Of a stretch of DNA of 32,000 bases, positions 7,352 through 31,100 are shown in pieces. Position numbers and translations under genes: made by a program. A model generated the notes under the pieces. It had not been told where the DNA came from. It was given only the letters and a program-made list of their open reading frames with translations, and did no database searches. Every line of letters starts with the position of its first letter. Position 1 is the stretch's first letter. The DNA comes from Haloferax volcanii DS2 (lineage in GTDB: Archaea; Halobacteriota; Halobacteria; Halobacteriales; Haloferacaceae), in assembly GCF_000025685.1 (NCBI RefSeq), contig NC_013964.1, forward strand, positions 30,001-62,000, written 5' to 3'.

Positions 7352-8305
7352 ATGGCTACACACGATAACACGGAGCACGTTTCTGACGCGACCGACGAGG
7401 CGGTCGGGTGGGAGTCGAAGCTCCGGTATTTCCTCAACAGCGACTTCGTCCGCTCCGCGCCGTACTGGGGAATCCCGTTCGTCCTCATGAGCATCGCCGT
7501 CTACGGTGGTACCGGCTACAACTTCGCCATCTCGTTTACGGACTACGAGGGCCTCGGGACTCCCGATTACTCCACGCTCGACTTGGAGATGTACGCACAG
7601 GCGCTGTCGAGCGACGCGTTCATCGCCGCCGCGCAGAACAATCTGGTCCTCCTCGTAGGCTTTACGACTATCTGTCTGGTGCTCGGCCTGTTCCTCGCAA
7701 TCCTGTTGGACCACGGCATCCGGTTTTCCGAGAAGTTCCAGACGGTCTATCTCCTCCCGATGAGCCTCTCGTTCGTCGTCACCGCGCAACTGTGGCTCTG
7801 GATGTTCAACGTCGAAAGCGGCATCCTCAACCTCGTCGTGACGACCCTCGGGTTCAATCCCGTAGACTGGCTGGGGAACCCATCAATCGCGCTCGGCGCG
7901 GTGATATTGGCCCTCATCTGGCAGTTCAGCGGATACACGATGGTCGTCTACCTCGCGGGGCTCCAGTCGATTCCCGACGACCAGTTCGAGGCGGCCCGCG
8001 TCGACGGCGCGAGCATCACTCGGACCTACCTCCGCATCATCGTCCCGCAACTGAAGGAGGCGTCCGTCAGCGCGGCCGTCGTGCTGATGGTGTTCGCGCT
8101 GAAGGCCTTCACCTTCCTGTACGCCCTCGTCGGTCGCTACCGCCCGCCGAACGGGACGGACATCCTGGCGACGCTCATGGTTCGCCGCGCGTTCAAGTTC
8201 GGTGAGTGGGCCTACTCGGCCGCCATCGCGACCATGCTTCTCATCATGGCGCTCGGCGTCATCGGACCGTACCTCTACTACCAGTACAAACAGGGGGGTC
8301 TCTGA
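7352..8305 (+). CDS. xacH: ABC sugar transporter permease (MalF/UgpA-like)
   Basis: 317-aa hydrophobic ORF with multiple TM segments and an EAA-loop-like region (DQFEAARVDGAS). Confidence 0.85.
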   Translation: MATHDNTEHVSDATDEAVGWESKLRYFLNSDFVRSAPYWGIPFVLMSIAVYGGTGYNFAISFTDYEGLGTPDYSTLDLEMYAQALSSDAFIAAAQNNLVLLVGFTTICLVLGLFLAILLDHGIRFSEKFQTVYLLPMSLSFVVTAQLWLWMFNVESGILNLVVTTLGFNPVDWLGNPSIALGAVILALIWQFSGYTMVVYLAGLQSIPDDQFEAARVDGASITRTYLRIIVPQLKEASVSAAVVLMVFALKAFTFLYALVGRYRPPNGTDILATLMVRRAFKFGEWAYSAAIATMLLIMALGVIGPYLYYQYKQGGL

Positions 8306-8307
8306 CC

Positions 8308-9237
8308 ATGTCACAGTCGTCATCCACAGGCAACTTCGACGTCGCATCGCTCGTCGAGGACGTGAACCTCCGGCGCGTCGCCCAGTACGCTCTCGTCGTG
8401 TTCTTCCTCGGGTTCTTCCTCGTCCCGCTGGAGACGGGAATCATGACCGCCATCAAGACGAACGAGTCGGTCGCTCGCTCGCTTCCCTTCGCGCCGCCGG
8501 TCGGTGAGGGTTTCACCCTCGGGAACATCCAGTTCGCCCTCGAACAGCTCTCGGGGTCGTTCTTCAACTCGCTCATCATGTCGATTCCGGCGACCATCGG
8601 GAGCGTCCTGTTCGGGAGCATGGCAGCCTACGGCCTCACGATGGTCAACTGGCGGGCGCAGATGGGTATGCTGATGCTGTTCGTCGTCGGCGTCTTCGTC
8701 CCCTATCAGGCCGTGTTGGTCCCGCTCGCACGCTTCTGGAACAACATCTTCCCGCTCGCGCGGATGATAGAGCCGATGGTGGCGTCGATACCCTTCTTCC
8801 AGGGGTACCACGCGGAACTCGTCCCCCTCGTCATCACCCATATCGCCTACGGGATTCCCATCTGTACGATACTGTTCCGGTCGTACTACCAGAGCCTCCC
8901 GAACTCGCTCGTGGAGGCCGGTAAAATCGACGGCGCGAGCATCACGAAGATTTACCGGCGCATCATCCTGCCCATCTCGAAGCCGATGTTCGGCGTCGTG
9001 TTCATCTACCAGTTCACGCAGATTTACAACGAGTTCCTCTTCGCGTTCACGCTCGTCACCGGGTCCGACGCGCCCGCAGCACCGGTCACGCTGGTGCTGC
9101 CCGCAATCGGGGCGTCGACTTCCGGCATCAACTTCGGTATCAGGATGTCCGCGGCGTTCCTCGCGGCGGTTCCGACGCTCATCCTGTACGTCGCGTTCGC
9201 CGAACAGTTCGCGAAGGGACTTCGCACGGAGGCCTGA
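8308..9237 (+). CDS. xacI: ABC sugar transporter permease (MalG/UgpE-like)
   Basis: Start chosen at ATG 8308 (MSQSSSTGNF...), 2 nt after the xacH stop. The track ORF start at 8206 lies inside xacH in another frame. An EAA-loop-like motif is present (LVEAGKIDGAS). Confidence 0.85.
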   Translation: MSQSSSTGNFDVASLVEDVNLRRVAQYALVVFFLGFFLVPLETGIMTAIKTNESVARSLPFAPPVGEGFTLGNIQFALEQLSGSFFNSLIMSIPATIGSVLFGSMAAYGLTMVNWRAQMGMLMLFVVGVFVPYQAVLVPLARFWNNIFPLARMIEPMVASIPFFQGYHAELVPLVITHIAYGIPICTILFRSYYQSLPNSLVEAGKIDGASITKIYRRIILPISKPMFGVVFIYQFTQIYNEFLFAFTLVTGSDAPAAPVTLVLPAIGASTSGINFGIRMSAAFLAAVPTLILYVAFAEQFAKGLRTEA

Positions 9238-22003: not shown

Positions 22004-23565
22004 GCGTGTCGGTCGTCGGTCGTCGGTTCGAGAGCGGTTCCGCGGTCCGAAATCTCGCGCAGGAGGTCTCGGAGGTCCTCGCGCGTCGTTCGGGGGTTCA
22101 GGAGCGTCAGCTTCAGACACGTCTCGCCGTCGACGGTGGTGCGGGCCACCACGGCCTCGCCGTCGTCGAGGAGGGAGTCGCGGATGGCCTCGTTCAGGTC
22201 GTCGGCGCTCGGGCCGTTGACCGGGCCGTCGGCCGGGCCGCCGCCGTCTCGTCCGTGGTCGGGGACGTACCGGAACACGACGACGTTCAGGTCGGAGTCG
22301 TGGACGAGCCGCAGGTCGGGGTCGGCCTCGACGAGCCTCGCGGCGTCGGCGGCGAGGTCGATGGTGTACTCGACCATCGACGCCAGCCCCTCGCGGCCGA
22401 GCGCCTGCATCGTCACGAACGGTTTGAGCGCGTCGAATCGCCGGGTGGTCTGGACCGACTTCGAGACGAGGTTCGGCACGCCCGCGTCGTCGTCGCGCAC
22501 GGGGTTCAGATAGGCCGCGTTGCGGTCGATGAGGTCGTACGCCGACGCGTCGCGGACGAGCACCGCGCCGCAGCTAATCGGTTGGTAGAACAGCTTGTGG
22601 AAGTCGACCGCGACGGAGTCCGCGGCCTCGATGCCGGCGAGCTTGTCGGCGTGGTCGTCGCTCAGGGCGAGCGCGCCGCCCCACGCGGCGTCGACGTGGT
22701 ACCAGCAGTCGAGTTCGGCCGCGCGCTCGGCCAGCGGGCCTAACGGGTCGATGCTTCCGAAGTCCGTCTTTCCGGCGGTGGCGACGATTGCGAACGGGCG
22801 TTTCCCGCGCTCGCGGAGGTCCGCCACCGCCTCGTCGAACGCCGCCATCGACAGGCGGCGGTCGTCGTCGGTCGGGACGGTGACGACGGCGTTCTCGCCG
22901 AGGCCGAGGTGCGAAGCGGCCTGCGTGGCGGTGAAGTGGGCGTCGGCCGAACAGAGGATGCGCAGGTCCCGCGCCTCCGGCGGTAGCCCCTCGTGCTGGA
23001 CGTCGACGCCGTACTCCTCCAAAACGACCTTGTTGCGGGCGAGGAGCAGGCCGACGAAGTTCGACTGCGTGCCGCCGCTCGTGAACACGCCGTCGCCGTC
23101 CTCGTAGCCGAACAGGTCGCACAGCTCCCCGACGAACCGCCGTTCGAGCTGCGTCGCGGCGGGGCTCTGGTCCCACGAGTCCATCGACTGGTTCGTCGCC
23201 GTCAGGAGCGCTTCGGCCGCGAGCGCCGGAATCGTCGGCGGACACTGGAGGTGCGCGATGCAGGTCGGGTCGGACACGCCGACCGAGTTTCGCAGAATCG
23301 GCTCGGTGCGGTCGAGCGCCGCGGCCACGCCGTCGCCCTCGTGGGGCAGCATCTCGAACCGGGCGAGCGCGTCGTCGACTTCTTCGGGCGTCGCCCCCGA
23401 GTACGGCGTCGCCTCCGCGGCGAACTCGTCGAGGACGAGGTCGCACGCCCGCCGCATCGCGTCGCGGTAGCGCGCCCGGTCGTCGTCGTCGCCGCTCAGG
23501 AACCACTTCGCGGCGTCCGGTCGCGGGTCGCGGCGCTCGCCGTCGACATCGCCCACGCCGTTCAT
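22000..23565 (-). CDS. bdb: L-2,4-diaminobutyrate decarboxylase (group II PLP-dependent decarboxylase, RhbB-like)
   Basis: Group II decarboxylase sequence with the PLP-lysine context SVAVDFHKLFYQP. Start at ATG 23565 (MNGVGDVDG...), overlapping the dat stop (ATGA). Confidence 0.85.
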   Translation of the reverse strand: MNGVGDVDGERRDPRPDAAKWFLSGDDDDRARYRDAMRRACDLVLDEFAAEATPYSGATPEEVDDALARFEMLPHEGDGVAAALDRTEPILRNSVGVSDPTCIAHLQCPPTIPALAAEALLTATNQSMDSWDQSPAATQLERRFVGELCDLFGYEDGDGVFTSGGTQSNFVGLLLARNKVVLEEYGVDVQHEGLPPEARDLRILCSADAHFTATQAASHLGLGENAVVTVPTDDDRRLSMAAFDEAVADLRERGKRPFAIVATAGKTDFGSIDPLGPLAERAAELDCWYHVDAAWGGALALSDDHADKLAGIEAADSVAVDFHKLFYQPISCGAVLVRDASAYDLIDRNAAYLNPVRDDDAGVPNLVSKSVQTTRRFDALKPFVTMQALGREGLASMVEYTIDLAADAARLVEADPDLRLVHDSDLNVVVFRYVPDHGRDGGGPADGPVNGPSADDLNEAIRDSLLDDGEAVVARTTVDGETCLKLTLLNPRTTREDLRDLLREISDRGTALEPTTDDRHA

Positions 23566-24941
23566 GCGGCGACCTCCCGGCGGCCGTCGGCGTCGGCGTC
23601 CTCGATTGCGGCCTCGACGGCGTCCGCGAAGATGCTCCCGACGGCGTCCACGTCGCTCGGACTGACGACGAGCGGCGGGAGGAACCGGACGACGCTCCCG
23701 TGGCGGCCGCCGAGTTCGAGGATGAGGCCGCGGTCGAAACACGCCTCGCGGACGGCGTCAGCGAGGTCCGGATTCGCCGGGTAGCGCCCGCAGGCGTCGG
23801 ATTCGCCCGCGGGGTCGACGAGTTCGACGCCGAGCATCAGCCCGCGACCGCGCACGTCTCCGACGGCGTCGTGGGCGCGCTCGGTCGCGTCGAGGTGGCC
23901 GCGGAGCCGCTCGCCCATGCGCGCGGCGTGGTCGTCGAGGTCGTGTTCGAGGACGTGTTCGATGGTGGCGATACCGGCGGCCATCGCCAGCTGGTTTCCC
24001 CGGAAGGTGCCGGCGTGCGCACCCGGCTCCCAGACGTCGAGCGACTCGTCGTAGACGACGACCGAAAGCGGGAGCGACCCGCCGATGGCCTTCGAGAGCG
24101 TGACCGCGTCCGGGACGATGTCGGCGTGCTCGAAGGCGTACAGTTCGCCGGTCCGGCCGAGACCGGTCTGAATCTCGTCGACGACCAGCGGGATGTCGCG
24201 TTCGCGGGTCATCCGCCGCACCTCGCGGGTCCAGTCGTCGGGCGCGGGAATCGCGCCGCCCTCGCCCTGCACGAGTTCGACCACCATCCCCGCGGGCTCG
24301 GTGATGCCGCTTTCGGGGTCGTCGAGGGTGCGCTCGACGTACCGGGCGGCGAGTTCGTGGCACTCGTCGCCGCCGACGCCGAACGGACACCGATACTCGT
24401 ACGGATACGGAAGGTGGTGTACGTCGGGCATCAGGCCGGGGACGTTCTCCTTCGGGTCGGTGTCGCCCATCAGGCTCAGCGCGCCGTTGGTCATGCCGTG
24501 GTAGCCGCCCTGAAACCCGAGAACGCTCCGGTTGCCCGTCGCGGTTTTGACGAGTTTGAGCGCGGCCTCGACGGCGTCGGTCCCGGCGGGGCTACAAAAC
24601 TGCACCCGCGCGCTGTCAGCGAACTCGTCGGGGAGGCTGTCGAACAGCGTGTCGACGAACCGCTCCTTGACGGGCGTCGTGATGTCGAGGGTGTGGAGCG
24701 GGCGGTCCTCCGCGAGGACGCGTTCCATCGCCTCGACCACTCTCGGGTGGTTGTGTCCGAGCGCGAGCGTGCCGGCCCCCGCGAGGCAGTCGTAGTACTC
24801 CTCGCCGTCCATGTCGGTGACGGTGACGCCCGAGGCCTCCCGTATCGCGTGCGGGAGGTGTCGGGGATAGGTCCGCGCGCTCGACTCGCGGGCGGCCTGC
24901 TGTTCGAGCAACGCCTCGTTGCCGGCTGCCGGGTCGGTCAT
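23562..24941 (-). CDS. dat: L-2,4-diaminobutyrate:2-oxoglutarate aminotransferase (class III aminotransferase, RhbA-like)
   Basis: 459-aa class III aminotransferase (GFQGGYHG, DEIQTGLGRTG, LSKAIGG PLP-lysine context). It is preceded by a GGAGG Shine-Dalgarno-like element (24950-24954 on the minus strand), 8 nt before the ATG. Confidence 0.85.
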   Translation of the reverse strand: MTDPAAGNEALLEQQAARESSARTYPRHLPHAIREASGVTVTDMDGEEYYDCLAGAGTLALGHNHPRVVEAMERVLAEDRPLHTLDITTPVKERFVDTLFDSLPDEFADSARVQFCSPAGTDAVEAALKLVKTATGNRSVLGFQGGYHGMTNGALSLMGDTDPKENVPGLMPDVHHLPYPYEYRCPFGVGGDECHELAARYVERTLDDPESGITEPAGMVVELVQGEGGAIPAPDDWTREVRRMTRERDIPLVVDEIQTGLGRTGELYAFEHADIVPDAVTLSKAIGGSLPLSVVVYDESLDVWEPGAHAGTFRGNQLAMAAGIATIEHVLEHDLDDHAARMGERLRGHLDATERAHDAVGDVRGRGLMLGVELVDPAGESDACGRYPANPDLADAVREACFDRGLILELGGRHGSVVRFLPPLVVSPSDVDAVGSIFADAVEAAIEDADADGRREVAA

Positions 24942-24993
24942 CGCGCTTCCCTCCGTTGATTCGTCGTCAGTCTATCGCTGTCGAGCATGCATG

Positions 24994-25011
24994 TTTTAGG
25001 CCGGCCTAAAA
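24994..25011. promoter_or_regulatory. perfect 18-bp palindrome TTTTAGGCCGGCCTAAAA upstream of the dat operon (iron-box-like operator candidate, site 1)
   Basis: It is self-complementary over all 18 nt. On the minus strand it is preceded by the TATA-like CTTTTGTG (25020 to 25013) and followed after 1 nt by an ATG (24992). Confidence 0.55.
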
Positions 25012-25035
25012 GCACAAAAGGTTTACTGCAATCTG

Positions 25036-25050
25036 ATTTTCAGTGAAAAT
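25036..25050 (-). terminator. A/T-rich palindrome ATTTTCA-g-TGAAAAT with a T4 run on the minus strand; terminator candidate for the 25300-leftward transcript
   Basis: 7-bp arms seen in the sequence. The minus strand reads GAAATTTTCACTGAAAATC. It lies between the orphan promoter (site 2) and the dat promoter (site 1). Confidence 0.3.
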
Positions 25051-25192
25051 TTCGGGACAGCGCAACCGCTCGTCGGCCGCGACGACCGACTCGCGGCGAC
25101 CGGTCCTACGGTCCAGTTGGGTGCTCTTCCGACGGACGGAGTCGGTGGTCGGTCGCGTTCCGGGGTCCGCCCCGCCCCACCCCGCCGCGGAC

Positions 25193-25300
25193 TCACCTCG
25201 CTTTCGCTCGGCGGAACACCTCCATGAGCGGGGGTTCTCCCTCGACGAACCACGCTGCGGTGACCGCCGGGGACACGCCCATATCTTGGCTCACTGCCAT
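25193..25300 (-). CDS. hypothetical 35-aa small ORF (MAVSQDMGVSPAVTAAWFVEGEPPLMEVFRRAKAR) at the 5' end of a putative iron-regulated small transcript; it may instead be non-coding
   Basis: The ATG lies 2 nt after palindrome site 2, positioned like the binding-protein ATG relative to site 3 (1-nt offset). A TATA-like TTATCATA lies at -28..-21. Third codon positions are mostly G/C. It is too short for the supplied ORF track, and no homology is known to me. Confidence 0.25.
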   Translation of the reverse strand: MAVSQDMGVSPAVTAAWFVEGEPPLMEVFRRAKAR

Positions 25301-25302
25301 AT

Positions 25303-25320
25303 TTTTAGGATAGCCTAAAA
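25303..25320. promoter_or_regulatory. palindrome TTTTAGG-ATAG-CCTAAAA (iron-box-like operator candidate, site 2), orphan
   Basis: 7-bp perfect arms. The core TTAGGATAGCCTAA matches 13 of 14 positions of the first 14 nt of the DtxR consensus as I recall it (TTAGGTTAGCCTAACCTAA). It lies about 80 nt downstream of the binding-protein stop and is not upstream of any annotated gene. Confidence 0.5.
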
Positions 25321-25398
25321 TATGATAAGCGTTCTGGCGGGACGCGCCGCTTGACGGGTGGGCGAAGAGAGAAAGCGGGGCCGCGAACCCGGGGCGAG

Positions 25399-26601
25399 TT
25401 ACAGGTTCCCGTTGGCGATGTCCGCGACGCGCTGGGCGTCGAACAGGCGCTCGTCGGCGTCGTACAGGGTCCGCGCGAGGCGGTCCGTCACGACGAGGTT
25501 CGTGATGGGGCCCTGATAGAGCGCGCCGGCGCGGTAGACGTCGCCGTTCTGGACGGCGGTGAGTTCGCCCGCCACCTCGTGGTTTTCCATGAACGAGACC
25601 ACGGTGTTCTGGAACTCCTCGCGTGTCTTGGCCTCCTGTCCGCGCACGAGGAGCACTTCGGGGTCGACCTCAAGCAGCGTCTCGAAGTCGACCGCGCCGC
25701 GGTTGCTGTAGAAGTCCCGCACCTCGGTCGTCGCGAGCGCGTCGTTGACTTTCAGGTCGTTGAGATGCTTGAAGCTCGTCCCCTCGTCGATGACGTAGGG
25801 GTAGAACTCCTCTGGCTCGTCGCCGCCGGCCCAGACGACCGCGGCCGAGGGCCGCTCGCCCTGCGCGGGGACGACCGGCGCGAGGTTCGACTGGAACTCC
25901 TCGTGGACCTGTTCGAACGCCTCGAAGCGGTCCTCGCGCTGGAACACCTGCGCGAACTTCTCGAACGCCTCGTAGAGAGTGTAGTAGCGGTAGTCCTCGT
26001 GCCACGCGTAGCCGCGCGAGAAGATGCTGTTGCCGAAGAACGGCCCGACCTGCGTGCTGATTTCCTCGATGTCGGCCTCGCTCCACTGGCCGCGGTTCAG
26101 GAGGAAGTTCGGGTCGGCGATGTGCACGTCCGCGTTCAGCTCGTAGAACTGCTCTTTGCCGACGCCGCTGTCGCCCCACAGCTGGCGGATGGACGACTTG
26201 TCGACGCTCACGTCCGGAATCTCGTCGTAGTACTGCGTGTGGTACCGGCCGGGGAGCCAAACGCCCATCGGCGTGTCGAGCCCGAGCGCGACGCCCATGT
26301 CGGCCCAACTGCCGTTGTTCGCAATCCACGCCTCCGGGACCGAATCGAACGTGACCTCGCCGACCGGCTCTATCGACACCGAGTAGGACTCCGCCGCCTC
26401 GGTCGTCGTCTCTGTCTCGGTCTCCGTCGCCGCCTCGGTCGTCGCGGCCGTGGTCGTCTCGGGCTCGGACGCCGTCGTCGTCGTCTCCGACCCGCTCCCG
26501 CCGGTACAGCCGGCGAGCAGGCCGCCTGCGATGACCGCGCCGCCGTACTGGAGGTACTCGCGCCGCGTCGATTCCCGTCCGCTTTGTCCGTCGTTTGCCA
26601 T
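25399..26601 (-). CDS. iron(III)-siderophore ABC transporter substrate-binding lipoprotein (periplasmic binding protein, FecB/FhuD-type), Tat signal plus lipobox
   Basis: 400-aa ORF with a twin-arginine motif (STRREYLQY), a lipobox (LLAGC), a Thr/Glu/Ala-rich linker and a type-2 periplasmic-binding-protein-like body. It lies next to the siderophore operon. No cognate permease or ATPase is in the window. Confidence 0.85.
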   Translation of the reverse strand: MANDGQSGRESTRREYLQYGGAVIAGGLLAGCTGGSGSETTTTASEPETTTAATTEAATETETETTTEAAESYSVSIEPVGEVTFDSVPEAWIANNGSWADMGVALGLDTPMGVWLPGRYHTQYYDEIPDVSVDKSSIRQLWGDSGVGKEQFYELNADVHIADPNFLLNRGQWSEADIEEISTQVGPFFGNSIFSRGYAWHEDYRYYTLYEAFEKFAQVFQREDRFEAFEQVHEEFQSNLAPVVPAQGERPSAAVVWAGGDEPEEFYPYVIDEGTSFKHLNDLKVNDALATTEVRDFYSNRGAVDFETLLEVDPEVLLVRGQEAKTREEFQNTVVSFMENHEVAGELTAVQNGDVYRAGALYQGPITNLVVTDRLARTLYDADERLFDAQRVADIANGNL

Positions 26602-26604
26602 GTC

Positions 26605-26622
26605 TTTTAGGCCTCCCTAAAT
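26605..26622. promoter_or_regulatory. palindrome TTTTAGG-CCTC-CCTAAAT (iron-box-like operator candidate, site 3) between TATA and ATG of the binding-protein gene
   Basis: On the minus strand TTTAGG is at -20..-15 and CCTAAA at -10..-5 relative to ATG 26601. The TATA-like TTTTAA (26630 to 26625) lies 23 nt before the ATG. Confidence 0.55.
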
Positions 26623-26641
26623 GGTTAAAACGTCTTCGGAA

Positions 26642-26656
26642 TTTAGGCGAGCCTAA
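26642..26656. promoter_or_regulatory. degenerate palindrome TTTAGG-CGAG-CCTAA (site 4), upstream of the binding-protein TATA box
   Basis: Same arm sequences and 4-nt spacer as sites 1-3, with one arm one base shorter. Its centre lies 36 bp from the centre of site 3. Confidence 0.4.
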
Positions 26657-26689
26657 CTACCTTCGCGCGGGGCGGGGGAAGGAGGCGGC

Positions 26690-28175: not shown

Positions 28176-31100
28176 TGGATTGGGTCTGCGTCATCGCGTT
28201 CGTCGTGTTCGCTTCGAGGTCGCCTTCGACGGAGAGGTTGATGTCCTGCAACCGCTCTCTCACGTCGTCGTCGGCGTCCCACAGGTCGCGGTCGATGGCT
28301 TCGAGGAACGTCGCGGTGATGCTTTCGAGCGCCCACGGGTTCACGTCGCGCAGCCACTCCTGTCGGTCCTCGTCGAAGGCGTAGGCGTCCGCGAGGTGCT
28401 CCCAGAGCGTGTCGCTGACGACGCCCGTGGTCGCGTCCCAGCCGAGCGCGACGTCGACCGTGGTCGAGAGGTCGCCCGCGCCCTTGTAGCCGTGTTCCTC
28501 CATGCTGTCGAGCCAGTCGGGGTTGAGGACGCGCGCCCGCATCGCCTTGCGGACCTTCTCCTCGTTCGTGTAGACGCTGACGTTGTCGGGGTCGCTGGAG
28601 TCGCCGACGTACGAGGCCGGGTCGCTCCCGGAAATCTCACCGACCGCGGAGACGAACCCGCCGTGGAAGGCGTACCAGTCGGAGGAGTCGAACTCGTCCT
28701 GTTCGGCGGTGTCCTCGATTTTCACGGTCGCCTCGACCCCGCTCAAGCGGCGCTCGAAGGCGTCGTGAGCTTCGGTCACCTTGCCGCGACTCCCGAGGGC
28801 GTAGCCGCCCCACTGGACGAACACGTCCGCGAGGTCGCTCCGGTCGTCCCACTCGCCCTCGTCGACGGCCTTGTTCGTCCCCGCGCCGTAGCCGCCGGGC
28901 GTCGTCGTGAACACGCGGTGTTTGGCCAGTGTCTCGGCCTCGTCGGGGTCGACGCCCTCCGATTCGAACTCGGCGGCGTCCTCCTCGACGTGCTTTTTCA
29001 CGTAGTTCATCTCGTGGGGCTCGTCGAGGTCGACCACCGCGTCGACGGCGTCGTTGACGACGCTCGCGGCCTGCGGGAACGCGTCGCGGAACAGCCCCGA
29101 GACGCGGGTCGTCACGTCGATTCGCGGCCGGTCGAGGTCGTCCAGCGGAATCGGCTCCACGTCGTCGACGCGGCCCGCGTCGGTCCACACCGGTTCGACG
29201 CCCATGAACGCGAGCACCTGCGCGATGGTCTCGCCGCGGGTCCGGACCGTCGGCGTCCCCCACGCGACGACCCCGAACTCCTCGGGATACTCGCCGTGGT
29301 CGTCGTAGTGGCGGTCGAGGACGCCCTCGGCGACGCGCTCGCCGACGCTCCACGCCGGCTTGGCCGGGACTTTCCGCGGGTCAAGCGTGTAGAAGTTCCG
29401 CCCGGTCGGCAGCAGGTCCACCCCGCCGCGGGTCGGCGCGCCGGAGCCGCCGGGGCGGACGTACTCGCCGTCGAGGGCGTCGGCGGTCTGCGGAATCTCG
29501 TTTTCCGCGGCCGCGACTCGCGGGGCTGCCTCGTCGCAGATGAACGCCAGCACCTCGCGGAGGTCGTCGTGCGCGCCGCGCTTGGCCCGCGCGTCCCCGA
29601 GTTGGTCGATATCGACCACGAGCAGGTTCATGTTCACCTCGTCGTCGGGGCCGGCGTCGACCTCCGACTCGGGCACGTCGAAGTCGCGTTCCGCGAGTGC
29701 GGAGACCAGTTCGACGCACTGGTCGTAGACGCGGTCTGCGGCCTCCGAGAGATACATCCCGAGGTCGTCGTCGTACGTCCCCGGCTCGTCCCGCATCCGG
29801 TCGTAGTCGACGCCCATGACGCCCGCGACGCTCTCGCGGAGACTCGGCGTGTCCGCGTTCGGGAGGCGGGTGAGCGCGACGAGGTACTCCACGAGTCGGT
29901 CGTTTGCGGGCGGTTCGCCCATCGTGTGGAGGCCCATCCGAATCTGCGTCGTCTTCACGTCGGTCAGGTACTCGTGGACGCGCTCGACGAGTTCGTCGAA
30001 CTCGACTTCGGCCTCGTCGGAGCCGACATCGCCGTCCGCGCCGCGGATGGCCTCGGCGTCGTCGAACCCGAGTTCGGCCGCGAGGTCGAGGTCGTCGACC
30101 GCGTCGACGAGGAGTTCGCGGAGTTGGTCGCCGCGCTCGGGGCGGGCCTCGTCCATGCCGGCCTCGCGGTACTCGCGGGCGAGTTCCTCGAGGTCCGCGA
30201 GGTCGTCGTAGGTTCCCGCGGTGCGCATGACCGGCGTGAGGTAGTCCACGATGGCCGCGTACGACCGGCGCTTGGCCTGCGTCCCCTCGCCGGGGTTGTT
30301 GATGATGTACGGGTAGACGTTCGGGAGGTCCGAAACCAGTTGGTCCGGCGCGCTCTCGCCGTTCAGCCCGACGGTCTTGCCGGGGAGCCATTCGAGGCTG
30401 CCGTGGGTGCCGAGGTGGACCACGGCGTCGGCCTCGAACGACTCGCGGAGCCACGCGTAGAACGCCACGTAGTCGTGCGGCGGCTGGAGGTCCGAATCGT
30501 GGTACACCTTCGAGGGGTCCATCCCGAAGCCGCGCGGGGGCTGGACGGTCACGAGGACGTTCTCGAACTCGACGCCCGGAATGGCAAAGGGTCGCTCCGG
30601 CGGGTCGCCCCACTCCTCGACGACGTTGTCGCGGAAGCGGTCGTCGGCGTCAGCGAACCAGTCGGCGTACTGGTCGGGAGCCACCACGTCGACGCTCAGG
30701 TCCCGCACGTCCTCGGGGGCGACCCAGCGGTCGTCCAACGTCAACTGCGAGGTGAGGTCGTCGATGAGCGCCTGCCCGTCCGCGGGGAGGTCACCGACGG
30801 CGTAGCCCCGCTCCCGGAGTTCGGACAGGAGATTGACCGTGCTCTCGGGGCTGTCCATCCCGAAGGCCGTCCCGATGCCGTCGTCGCTCGGCGGGTAGTT
30901 GTGGAGGACGACCGCGACGTTCTTCTCGTCGTTCGGGAGGTGGCGGAGCCGCGCCCAGTTGACCGCGAGGCGGGCGACGTGGTCGACGCGGTCCTCGATG
31001 GGGAAGTGCTGTTTCGGCGCGCTCCCGACGCCCGCCTCGTCTTCCATCCGCTCTTTCCCGCTTATCGGGTGGGTGATGACGTTGCCGTCGAACTCGGGGA

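Follow-up and report, generated by a model that had tools for sequence, protein, structure and literature searches.

A probable remnant of a third IucA-type siderophore synthetase gene, with a surviving TroR-type promoter, in Haloferax volcanii

The 32,000-nucleotide stretch of Haloferax volcanii DNA analyzed here (the window) covers positions 30001 to 62000 of pHV3, and within it we studied the 457-nt gap between HVO_B0047, which encodes an iron-siderophore binding protein, and dat (HVO_B0046), the first gene of the siderophore operon dat-bdb-iucABDC. A sequence-only reading of this gap had placed an iron-box promoter and a 35-codon open reading frame (ORF) there and had proposed that the promoter drives either a leaderless micro-protein gene or an iron-repressed regulatory small RNA (sRNA). 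We found that the interval is very probably the relic of a third IucA-type siderophore-synthetase gene, here called iucX, whose regulated promoter has survived, rather than a new micro-protein or RNA gene. The length of the gap equals the published distance between HVO_B0046 and HVO_B0047, and the features discussed below are collected in Table 1.

An intact synthetase gene in relatives and a probable deletion scar in the window

The corresponding gap of Hfx. gibbonsii ARA6 is occupied by an annotated gene of the IucA/IucC family, iucX, with a product of 608 amino acids (WP_050460047.1) that starts with MATSRDIGRTPAADAAP and ends with FVEVDNPLVTAFDGER. The sequence upstream of this gene, ttcttatatg-t-TTTTAGGtcagCCTAAAacac-ATG, has the same promoter, operator, and leaderless ATG as the window. 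The iucX product contains an IucA_IucC domain (residues 158 to 393) and an FhuF domain (residues 424 to 584), has the aerobactin synthase IucA as its best match in the PDB (5jm7, E = 6.6e-49), and shares 63% of its residues, along the full length, with the IucA encoded within the operon of the window. Orthologs of iucX with more than 90% identity were found only in the gibbonsii group, and the other haloarchaeal matches, at 50 to 63% identity, are the in-operon IucA.

We surveyed a single genome of each species, anchored on the binding protein, and then searched with iucX and dat by tblastn. An intact iucX lies between the binding-protein gene and dat in Hfx. gibbonsii ARA6, Hfx. gibbonsii ATCC 33959, and Haloferax sp. 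Q22, and the intact gene is under purifying selection, with a ratio of nonsynonymous to synonymous divergence (dN/dS) of 0.19 at a synonymous divergence (dS) of 0.18. Hfx. prahovense carries iucX at the same position, frameshifted by a perfect 85-bp tandem duplication. A short gap like that of the window, about 440 to 460 nt long, is present in Hfx. alexandrinus, Hfx. denitrificans, Hfx. chudinovii, and Hfx. massiliensis, so that the gene order is binding protein-iucX-dat in ARA6, ATCC 33959, Q22, and prahovense and binding protein-scar-dat in the window and these four other species. The window region itself shares 98.7% identity with Hfx. alexandrinus pBNX82-1 and 98.4% with Hfx. lucentense. 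The two copies of the prahovense duplication are found at 8158-8241 and 8243-8326 of the extracted locus (L009 8158-8326), and the duplication represents either an independent inactivation of iucX or an assembly artefact.

A BLASTN comparison of the window gap with the gibbonsii gap gave two aligned blocks, one covering the first ~190 nt (the binding-protein 3' end, the promoter, the box, and ~37 nt of the ORF start) and the other covering the last ~200 nt (the distal 3' untranslated region [UTR] and the dat promoter). When gap extension was free, global alignment spread the scar out over the intact gene and was uninformative; it was replaced by a dynamic-programming alignment that allows a single split. 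This alignment placed one deletion of 1,724 to 1,726 bp in 9 of the 12 scar-intact comparisons and one of 1,752 to 1,761 bp in the remaining 3. In intact iucX, the hexamer GACGCG occurs at offset 39 (codons 14 and 15) and again at offset 1764 (18 codons before the stop), so that the two repeats are exactly 1,725 bp apart, a multiple of 3. Removal in silico of one repeat together with the intervening DNA yields a 33-codon virtual product, MATSRDIGRTPAADAPLFVEVDNPLVTAFDGER; the window relic has 2 additional codons ahead of the TGA at 25195-25193. The relic ORFs align with the virtual product without gaps over the first 87 nt, 58 to 60 of which are identical in the window, denitrificans, and chudinovii, and the nucleotide identity of the window was reached by 0 of 100,000 shuffles. 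At the protein level, 14 of 29 residues are identical, with none of 100,000 shuffles scoring as high.

The N-terminus of the relic matches the iucX-specific N-terminus, unlike that of IucA (MNPNDTAES...), and its C-terminal part corresponds to the DNPLVT tail common to the IucA paralogs, from which it follows that the event was a deletion and not an insertion. Origin of iucX by insertion into an older small ORF was considered and rejected, both on the C-terminal homology to the tail of the paralog IucA and on the position of the junction at direct repeats that the intact gene also carries. The stop codon is kept, as is a 3' UTR of similar length (251 nt in the window versus 271 nt in gibbonsii). 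All five scar-bearing genomes (the window, alexandrinus, denitrificans, chudinovii, and massiliensis) have the same junction, which therefore indicates one deletion event followed by inheritance or transfer. A Pfam search with the 35-amino-acid product gave no match, and the catalytic domains are lost.

As judged from aligned sequences, the relic ORF evolves neutrally, and neither its start nor its frame is conserved among the relatives. Among the window, denitrificans, and chudinovii, it diverges at 12 to 17% of sites, a level that matches the synonymous divergence of the adjacent dat gene (dS 0.15), and its dN/dS is 1.1 to 2.5 versus 0.12 for dat. Substitutions are spread evenly across codon positions (6/8/4, 5/5/4, and similar). 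In the intact genes, the same 99 nt differ by 6 to 7% between gibbonsii and Q22, at a dS of 0.17 to 0.19. The window, alexandrinus, and denitrificans have an intact ORF; in chudinovii, both ATGs of the ORF are now ATA, and in massiliensis, a 1-nt deletion, followed by a 3-nt deletion, shifts the frame and leads to an unrelated 24-codon product.

In the history that we propose, the ancestor of the volcanii/gibbonsii group would have carried a third nonribosomal peptide synthetase (NRPS)-independent synthetase gene, iucX, between the binding-protein gene and dat-bdb-iucABDC, under its own leaderless promoter repressed by TroR, a DtxR-family regulator. A 1,725-bp deletion between the in-frame GACGCG direct repeats would then have removed codons 16 to 590 in the lineage of the window, probably by slippage or microhomology-mediated recombination. 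Still in place are the promoter with its TroR operator, the ATG with 15 N-terminal codons, ~18 C-terminal codons up to the stop, and the entire 3' UTR, T-stretch terminators included.

Two further genomes have lesions of other kinds at this position. In Hfx. marisrubri, the whole cluster, including the box, is absent; homology ends directly past the binding-protein terminator, and ~400 bp of AT-rich sequence takes the place of the cluster (extracted locus L006 7225-7630). Hfx. gibbonsii LR2-5 keeps the box and 147 iucX codons, followed by the xacR region, and the rest of the cluster is absent (L003 3573-4037). These are two further independent losses at the siderophore locus; a literature search for gibbonsii LR2-5 together with siderophore found no paper.

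The promoter, its operator, and mapped RNA ends

When the 32-kb window was searched for TTTAGGN4CCTAAA with up to 2 mismatches, we found four matches (at 24995, 25304, 26606, and 26642) versus 0.09 expected, a count reached in 0 of 100 shuffles. Allowing 3 mismatches added only two matches, both poor and intragenic. In the box region of the relic (TTTAGGctatCCTAAAAATA, minus strand, 25319-25300), both arms are exact with respect to the published TroR motif, TTTAGGC-NNN-CCTAAAANAN (PMC10783522), and the single mismatch to this motif lies beside the left arm, where the published base is C and that of the window is T. The relic promoter consists of the TATA-like element, 1 nt, the box, 3 nt, and the ATG, a layout that matches the binding-protein promoter (TTTTAA, 3 nt, TTTAGGgaggCCTAAA, 4 nt, and ATG). 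Siderophore genes are known to be repressed by TroR when iron is present, and the expression of HVO_B0046 is iron and TroR dependent (PMC10783522). In the same study, both boxes of the HVO_B0047 promoter (P_HVO_B0047) were validated by reporter fusions, and this promoter was found to be TroR and iron dependent (PMC10783522). As predicted from its form and placement, which are those of the validated TroR targets, the relic box is a TroR-class operator within a core promoter. The sequence-only reading had rightly recognized an iron box in a promoter built like that of the binding-protein gene, and all of the coordinates that it gave for the TATA-like element, the arms, the ATG, the ORF, the inverted repeat, the G4 tracts, and the palindrome are correct on the minus strand.

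We compared conservation across alignment columns in four independent relic lineages. Invariant columns make up 12 of 12 positions in the operator arms, 17 of 20 in the extended box, and 14 of 17 in the core of the transcription factor B recognition element (BRE) and TATA element, versus 56% in the ORF and 42% in the 3' UTR, which also has many indels. The same BRE/TATA element is present upstream of iucX in gibbonsii, Q22, and prahovense. At a background of 50 to 56%, 12 of 12 invariant arm positions correspond to a P value of ~1e-3 or less, a post hoc figure that comes from four lineages and could be affected by gene conversion among the boxes.

Three minus-strand RNA 3' ends are listed after HVO_B0047 by Berkemer et al. 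2020 (PMC7237163, SuppTable1). The first of them, 39 nt past HVO_B0047, equates pHV3 55360 with window position 25360, and this offset is confirmed because the two other published termination sites coincide with T-runs in the window. In that data set, the flag 3'UTRcompleteCov tells whether RNA-seq reads cover the distance between the coding region and the site without a break (PMC7237163). Because the flag is 0 for the ends at 25044 and 25015, these are not shown to be extensions of the HVO_B0047 mRNA. Both have the T-stretch motif, and they fit RNAs of ~257 and ~286 nt that start at the relic promoter, which agrees with the earlier expectation of a short minus-strand RNA ending at the ATTTTCA oligo-T. 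The curated annotation used in the same study contains no gene or sRNA in the gap (PMC7237163), as can be seen from the authors' assignment of the distal ends to HVO_B0047. At the mapped 3' end, each relic species (the window and the homologous positions of the extracted loci L004, L005, and L007) has an AT-rich inverted repeat made of different bases: ATTTTCAcTGAAAAT in the window and ATATTTTcactaAAAATAT in denitrificans. Species with the intact gene have TTATTATTCA there, with no T4 run.

We consider it reasonably probable that the relic promoter is active and repressed by TroR. With iron present, TroR would sit on the box at -19 to -4, between the TATA element and the start, and block initiation. 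Under iron limitation, transcription would start at or next to the ATG at ~25300 and end at 25044 or 25015, and the resulting RNAs of ~257 and ~286 nt would be junk. Since this RNA would be leaderless, a functionless peptide of 35 amino acids may be translated from it, and some read-through into dat may occur.

On the two sides of the relic, the neighboring genes have signals of their own. The HVO_B0047 terminator is efficient, with the mapped 3' end at 25360 and complete coverage, and 19 of its 28 columns are invariant among the relic species. A separate TroR box and leader precede dat, so that HVO_B0047 and the dat operon are distinct transcription units; P_HVO_B0047 (boxes at 26606-26657) is called the promoter 5' of the siderophore operon in PMC10783522 despite this separation. 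Before dat, a 16-codon upstream ORF, MLDSDRLTTNQRREAR (24938-24988, minus strand), starts 5 to 6 nt past the dat TroR box, and its TGA overlaps the dat ATG as ATGA. This ORF is in frame and free of indels in 9 of 9 Haloferax loci, with a variable peptide sequence, and because its frame is kept in the nine loci, the siderophore operon may start with a leaderless coupling ORF. In the window, a 6-codon ORF also starts before dat, at an additional ATG at 24992. The genes past dat are bdb, two of the IucA/IucC type, and one for a lysine/ornithine monooxygenase, and cobalamin genes are located upstream of the binding-protein gene.

Table 1. Features of the HVO_B0047-dat interval and its borders (window coordinates)
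Feature	Position	Strand	Remark
Iron-siderophore binding protein gene, Peripla_BP_2 (HVO_B0047)	25399-26601	minus	
HVO_B0047 3' end and terminator: hairpin GGGTTCGCGGCCC, then T-rich tail	25360-25398	minus	terminator-like match
RNA 3' end, pHV3 55360	25360	minus	own terminator of HVO_B0047; complete coverage, mean 2,386; T-stretch motif
iucX core promoter: BRE-like CCGCCAGAA (25340-25332) and TATA-like CTTATCATA (25329-25321)	25320-25340	minus	
TATA-like TTATCATA	25328-25321	minus	-28 to -21 relative to the ATG at 25300
Predicted TroR (DtxR-family) operator TTTAGGctatCCTAAA	25304-25319	strandless	-19 to -4 from the ATG; exact pattern match
Operator arms TTTAGG and CCTAAA	25319-25314 and 25309-25304	minus	
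35-codon ORF MAVSQDMGVSPAVTAAWFVEGEPPLMEVFRRAKAR	25300 (ATG) to 25193	minus	
Relic of iucX codons 1-15, leaderless ATG at 25300	25256-25300	minus	relic MAVSQDMGVSPAVTA versus iucX MATSRDIGRTPAADA
Relic codons 14-15, from the left GACGCG repeat	25261-25256	minus	deletion junction
Relic of the last ~18 iucX codons and stop	25193-25255	minus	relic AWFVEGEPPLMEVF..R* versus iucX PLFVEVDNPLVTAFDGER*
Kept iucX 3' UTR	25045-25192	minus	homologous to the gibbonsii iucX-dat spacer
GGGGY tract run, three G4 tracts	~25167-25186	minus	length-variable simple repeat
Imperfect inverted repeat GTCGGCCGCGA/TCGCGGCGAC (25072-25100), conserved as GGTCGCCGCGA...TCGCGGCCGAC (25072-25101)	25072-25101	minus	conserved in 9 Haloferax loci
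Palindrome ATTTTCAgTGAAAAT	25036-25050	minus	
RNA 3' end, pHV3 55044	25044	minus	after ATTTTC, before A; T-stretch motif; 3'UTRcompleteCov = 0
RNA 3' end, pHV3 55015	25015	minus	after CCTTTT, before G; T-stretch motif; 3'UTRcompleteCov = 0
Predicted TroR operator, dat-bdb-iucABDC promoter	24995-25010	strandless	neighbor of the relic, outside it
dat, class-III aminotransferase	23562-24941	minus	

RNA structure and competing explanations

The part of the interval that follows the ORF had been described as strongly self-complementary. We found that the fold of the 265-nt putative transcript is not more stable than those of dinucleotide shuffles (z = -1.38 for the minus strand and -0.71 for the plus strand), and an Rfam scan of positions 24900 to 25450 at E <= 1 gave no match. 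In an RNAalifold analysis of the five relic sequences, the covariation term was a net penalty of +5.56. Pair counts on the RNAalifold structure beat within-column shuffles (0 of 500 as high), an excess that is circular because the structure was derived from the same alignment. In column shuffles of the whole alignment, the stability was above that of the shuffles (z = -3.5), and compensatory pairs were not enriched (10 versus 6.3; 14 of 200 shuffles reached that count). When the alignment was split, the ORF part gave no structural signal (z = -0.46), and the stability came from the 3' part, whose consensus fold is stable (z = -3.6 versus column shuffles), again with no enrichment of compensatory pairs (146 of 200 shuffles as high).

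In a nine-species alignment of intact and relic loci, the signal is one inverted repeat at 25072-25101 (z = -7.6 versus column shuffles), which in gibbonsii takes the form of a 12-bp hairpin with one G-U pair (L002 ~2590-2620). Because it is kept past intact iucX too, this repeat is an inherited 3'-UTR feature and no hallmark of a new RNA gene. Of the self-complementarity that had been claimed, the conserved inverted repeat thus stands, whereas the 265-nt stretch as a whole does not, nor does the G-tract run. The GGGGY run has three tracts in the window, one more in alexandrinus, and none in denitrificans, chudinovii, and massiliensis, and it has no conserved G-quadruplex potential. Covariation in the structured part was likewise not borne out, with compensatory pairs no more frequent than in shuffles and a signal that consists of the stability of the inherited hairpin. 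The 3' UTR is the least conserved part of the gap. The inverted repeat lies ~28 nt ahead of a mapped RNA 3' end, and in denitrificans, 14 nt (GGTCGCCGCGAGTC) are duplicated in tandem within the hairpin region of the relic 3' UTR (L004 ~7490-7520).

Some of these results weigh against the interpretation of the interval as a plain gene relic. The conservation of the operator and the BRE/TATA element in the four relic lineages exceeds what pure neutral decay predicts, and for this reason some residual promoter or operator function is possible. In addition, the 3' part has the stable consensus fold described above, as measured against a null that ignores dinucleotides and with no compensatory enrichment. 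Finally, the two distal RNA ends are classed as secondary (PMC7237163), and no transcription start site is accordingly listed between 25360 and 25044, in iron-replete cultures. The main alternative, which we consider unlikely, is that the TroR promoter and operator of the relic have been exapted and now serve the siderophore operon 309 bp downstream, as a read-through promoter or an auxiliary TroR site. This would account for the invariance of the box arms and of most BRE/TATA positions in lineages with a neutral divergence of ~0.15, in which the flanks are invariant at only 42 to 56% of columns. It also fits the shared direction of the relic and dat, the presence of only T4 tracts in between, with T-stretch termination being incomplete (95% for T5C, PMC7237163), and an operon transcript of ~9,000 nt versus 8,600 nt of coding sequence. 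However, two mapped 3' ends lie before dat, dat has a complete promoter, box, and leader of its own, all of them conserved, and the conservation test has the post hoc character, the small number of lineages, and the possible gene conversion among neighboring boxes noted above.

An iron-repressed sRNA like RyhB or PrrF, in which a relic RNA of ~257 to 286 nt would base-pair with target mRNAs under iron limitation, is very unlikely. In its favor are the promoter of the TroR-controlled type, the discrete T-stretch 3' ends at 25044 and 25015 with no continuous coverage from the upstream gene, and the stable fold of the 3' part. Against these stand the Rfam, single-sequence folding, and covariation results, a body that is the least conserved part of the gap and has several indels, and a conserved hairpin that is found downstream of intact iucX as well. 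No sRNA is listed at the gap in the searchable sets, including the oxidative-stress sRNA entries listed, the mixed RNA-seq supplements contain no entry for these genes, and the interval is the remnant of a 608-codon IucA/IucC gene. A dedicated leaderless micro-protein gene with a functional 35-amino-acid peptide is close to refuted, and we give it next to no probability. Its ATG follows the operator by 3 nt, like the leaderless genes of the locus, the ORF is intact in three of the scar-bearing genomes, and automatic gene callers call it in sequencing-run assemblies, but it joins the two ends of an enzyme gene in frame, has no Pfam match, changes at the neutral rate with substitutions even across codon positions, and has lost its start in chudinovii and its frame in massiliensis. 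It had also been suggested that the palindromic operator might support a rightward, plus-strand promoter, whose RNA would be antisense to the binding-protein gene at its 3' end. We regard this as extremely improbable, since the BRE/TATA-like element is located, and conserved, on the minus-strand side of the box only, the sequence to the left of the box is the relic ORF start with no TATA element, the homologous gibbonsii promoter drives a minus-strand gene, and the listed termination sites nearest the gap are all on the minus strand, with none on the plus strand. A sigma-70-type pattern match on the plus strand was set aside as irrelevant for archaea, and nothing indicates a rightward RNA.

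Significance and comparison with known systems

A relic of iucX would explain both the orphan TroR site and the unusually long 457-nt gap beside the siderophore operon of the main haloarchaeal model organism, and it cautions that the 35-codon ORF should be annotated neither as a gene nor as an sRNA. On this interpretation, a third IucA-type synthetase, which gibbonsii and Q22 keep under purifying selection, has been lost from Hfx. volcanii and its closest relatives, and the siderophore chemistry of volcanii may therefore not represent the genus. The locus, which provides a public good, has been eroded repeatedly, with four independent lesions among ten species, and the surviving regulated promoter offers a natural test case for the persistence of an operator after gene loss. 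Neither the relic nor iucX was mentioned in the papers on the locus that we consulted, and the gap is absent from the siderophore-operon supplement of PMC11349517. The relic is useful for Haloferax iron biology and annotation and only mildly surprising. We think it rather improbable that the scar is not inert, with its operator and promoter kept by selection as an extra iron input to the siderophore operon or with an iron-limitation-specific RNA of ~260 to 290 nt or a leaderless peptide under recruitment. If the recruitment of an RNA or peptide were true, it would be a natural case of an archaeal regulatory RNA or micro-gene that arose from what a deletion left behind.

The closest comparison is with the intact iucX of ARA6, which encodes an IucA-type NRPS-independent siderophore synthetase. 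The window relic shares with it the position, promoter, operator, start, first 15 codons, last ~18 codons, stop, and 3' UTR, and differs in that the central 1,725 bp, comprising the entire IucA_IucC and FhuF-like catalytic body, are absent and the rest evolves neutrally. With P_HVO_B0047 and the other promoters of the TroR regulon (Martinez Pastor et al. 2023/24, PMC10783522), the relic promoter shares the TTTAGG-N4-CCTAAA semi-palindrome between a TATA-like element and a leaderless ATG. The operator class is the "DtxR motif I" of Leyn and Rodionov 2015, and the expected logic is alike, with TroR and iron repressing. P_HVO_B0047 has two boxes ~30 bp apart, serves a real gene, and was reporter tested, whereas the relic promoter has one box, precedes only a gene remnant, and is predicted. 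The Fur-controlled sRNAs RyhB and PrrF and the relic RNA would all be short transcripts under an iron-responsive repressor. In contrast to these sRNAs, the relic unit is not homologous to them, lacks a conserved seed and any conserved structure other than the inherited 3'-UTR hairpin, and has no known targets, and its origin from a gene fragment is demonstrated.

The relic is thus a fresh instance of a familiar kind of gene remnant, with an operator of the known TroR/DtxR-motif-I class. As in other pseudogene or gene-remnant transcription units, an internal deletion ended the function, and the regulatory region and terminator survive and probably still yield RNA. It differs from the usual gene remnants in that the deletion is in frame, leaving a translatable leaderless mini-ORF, and in that the operator is apparently conserved beyond the neutral expectation.

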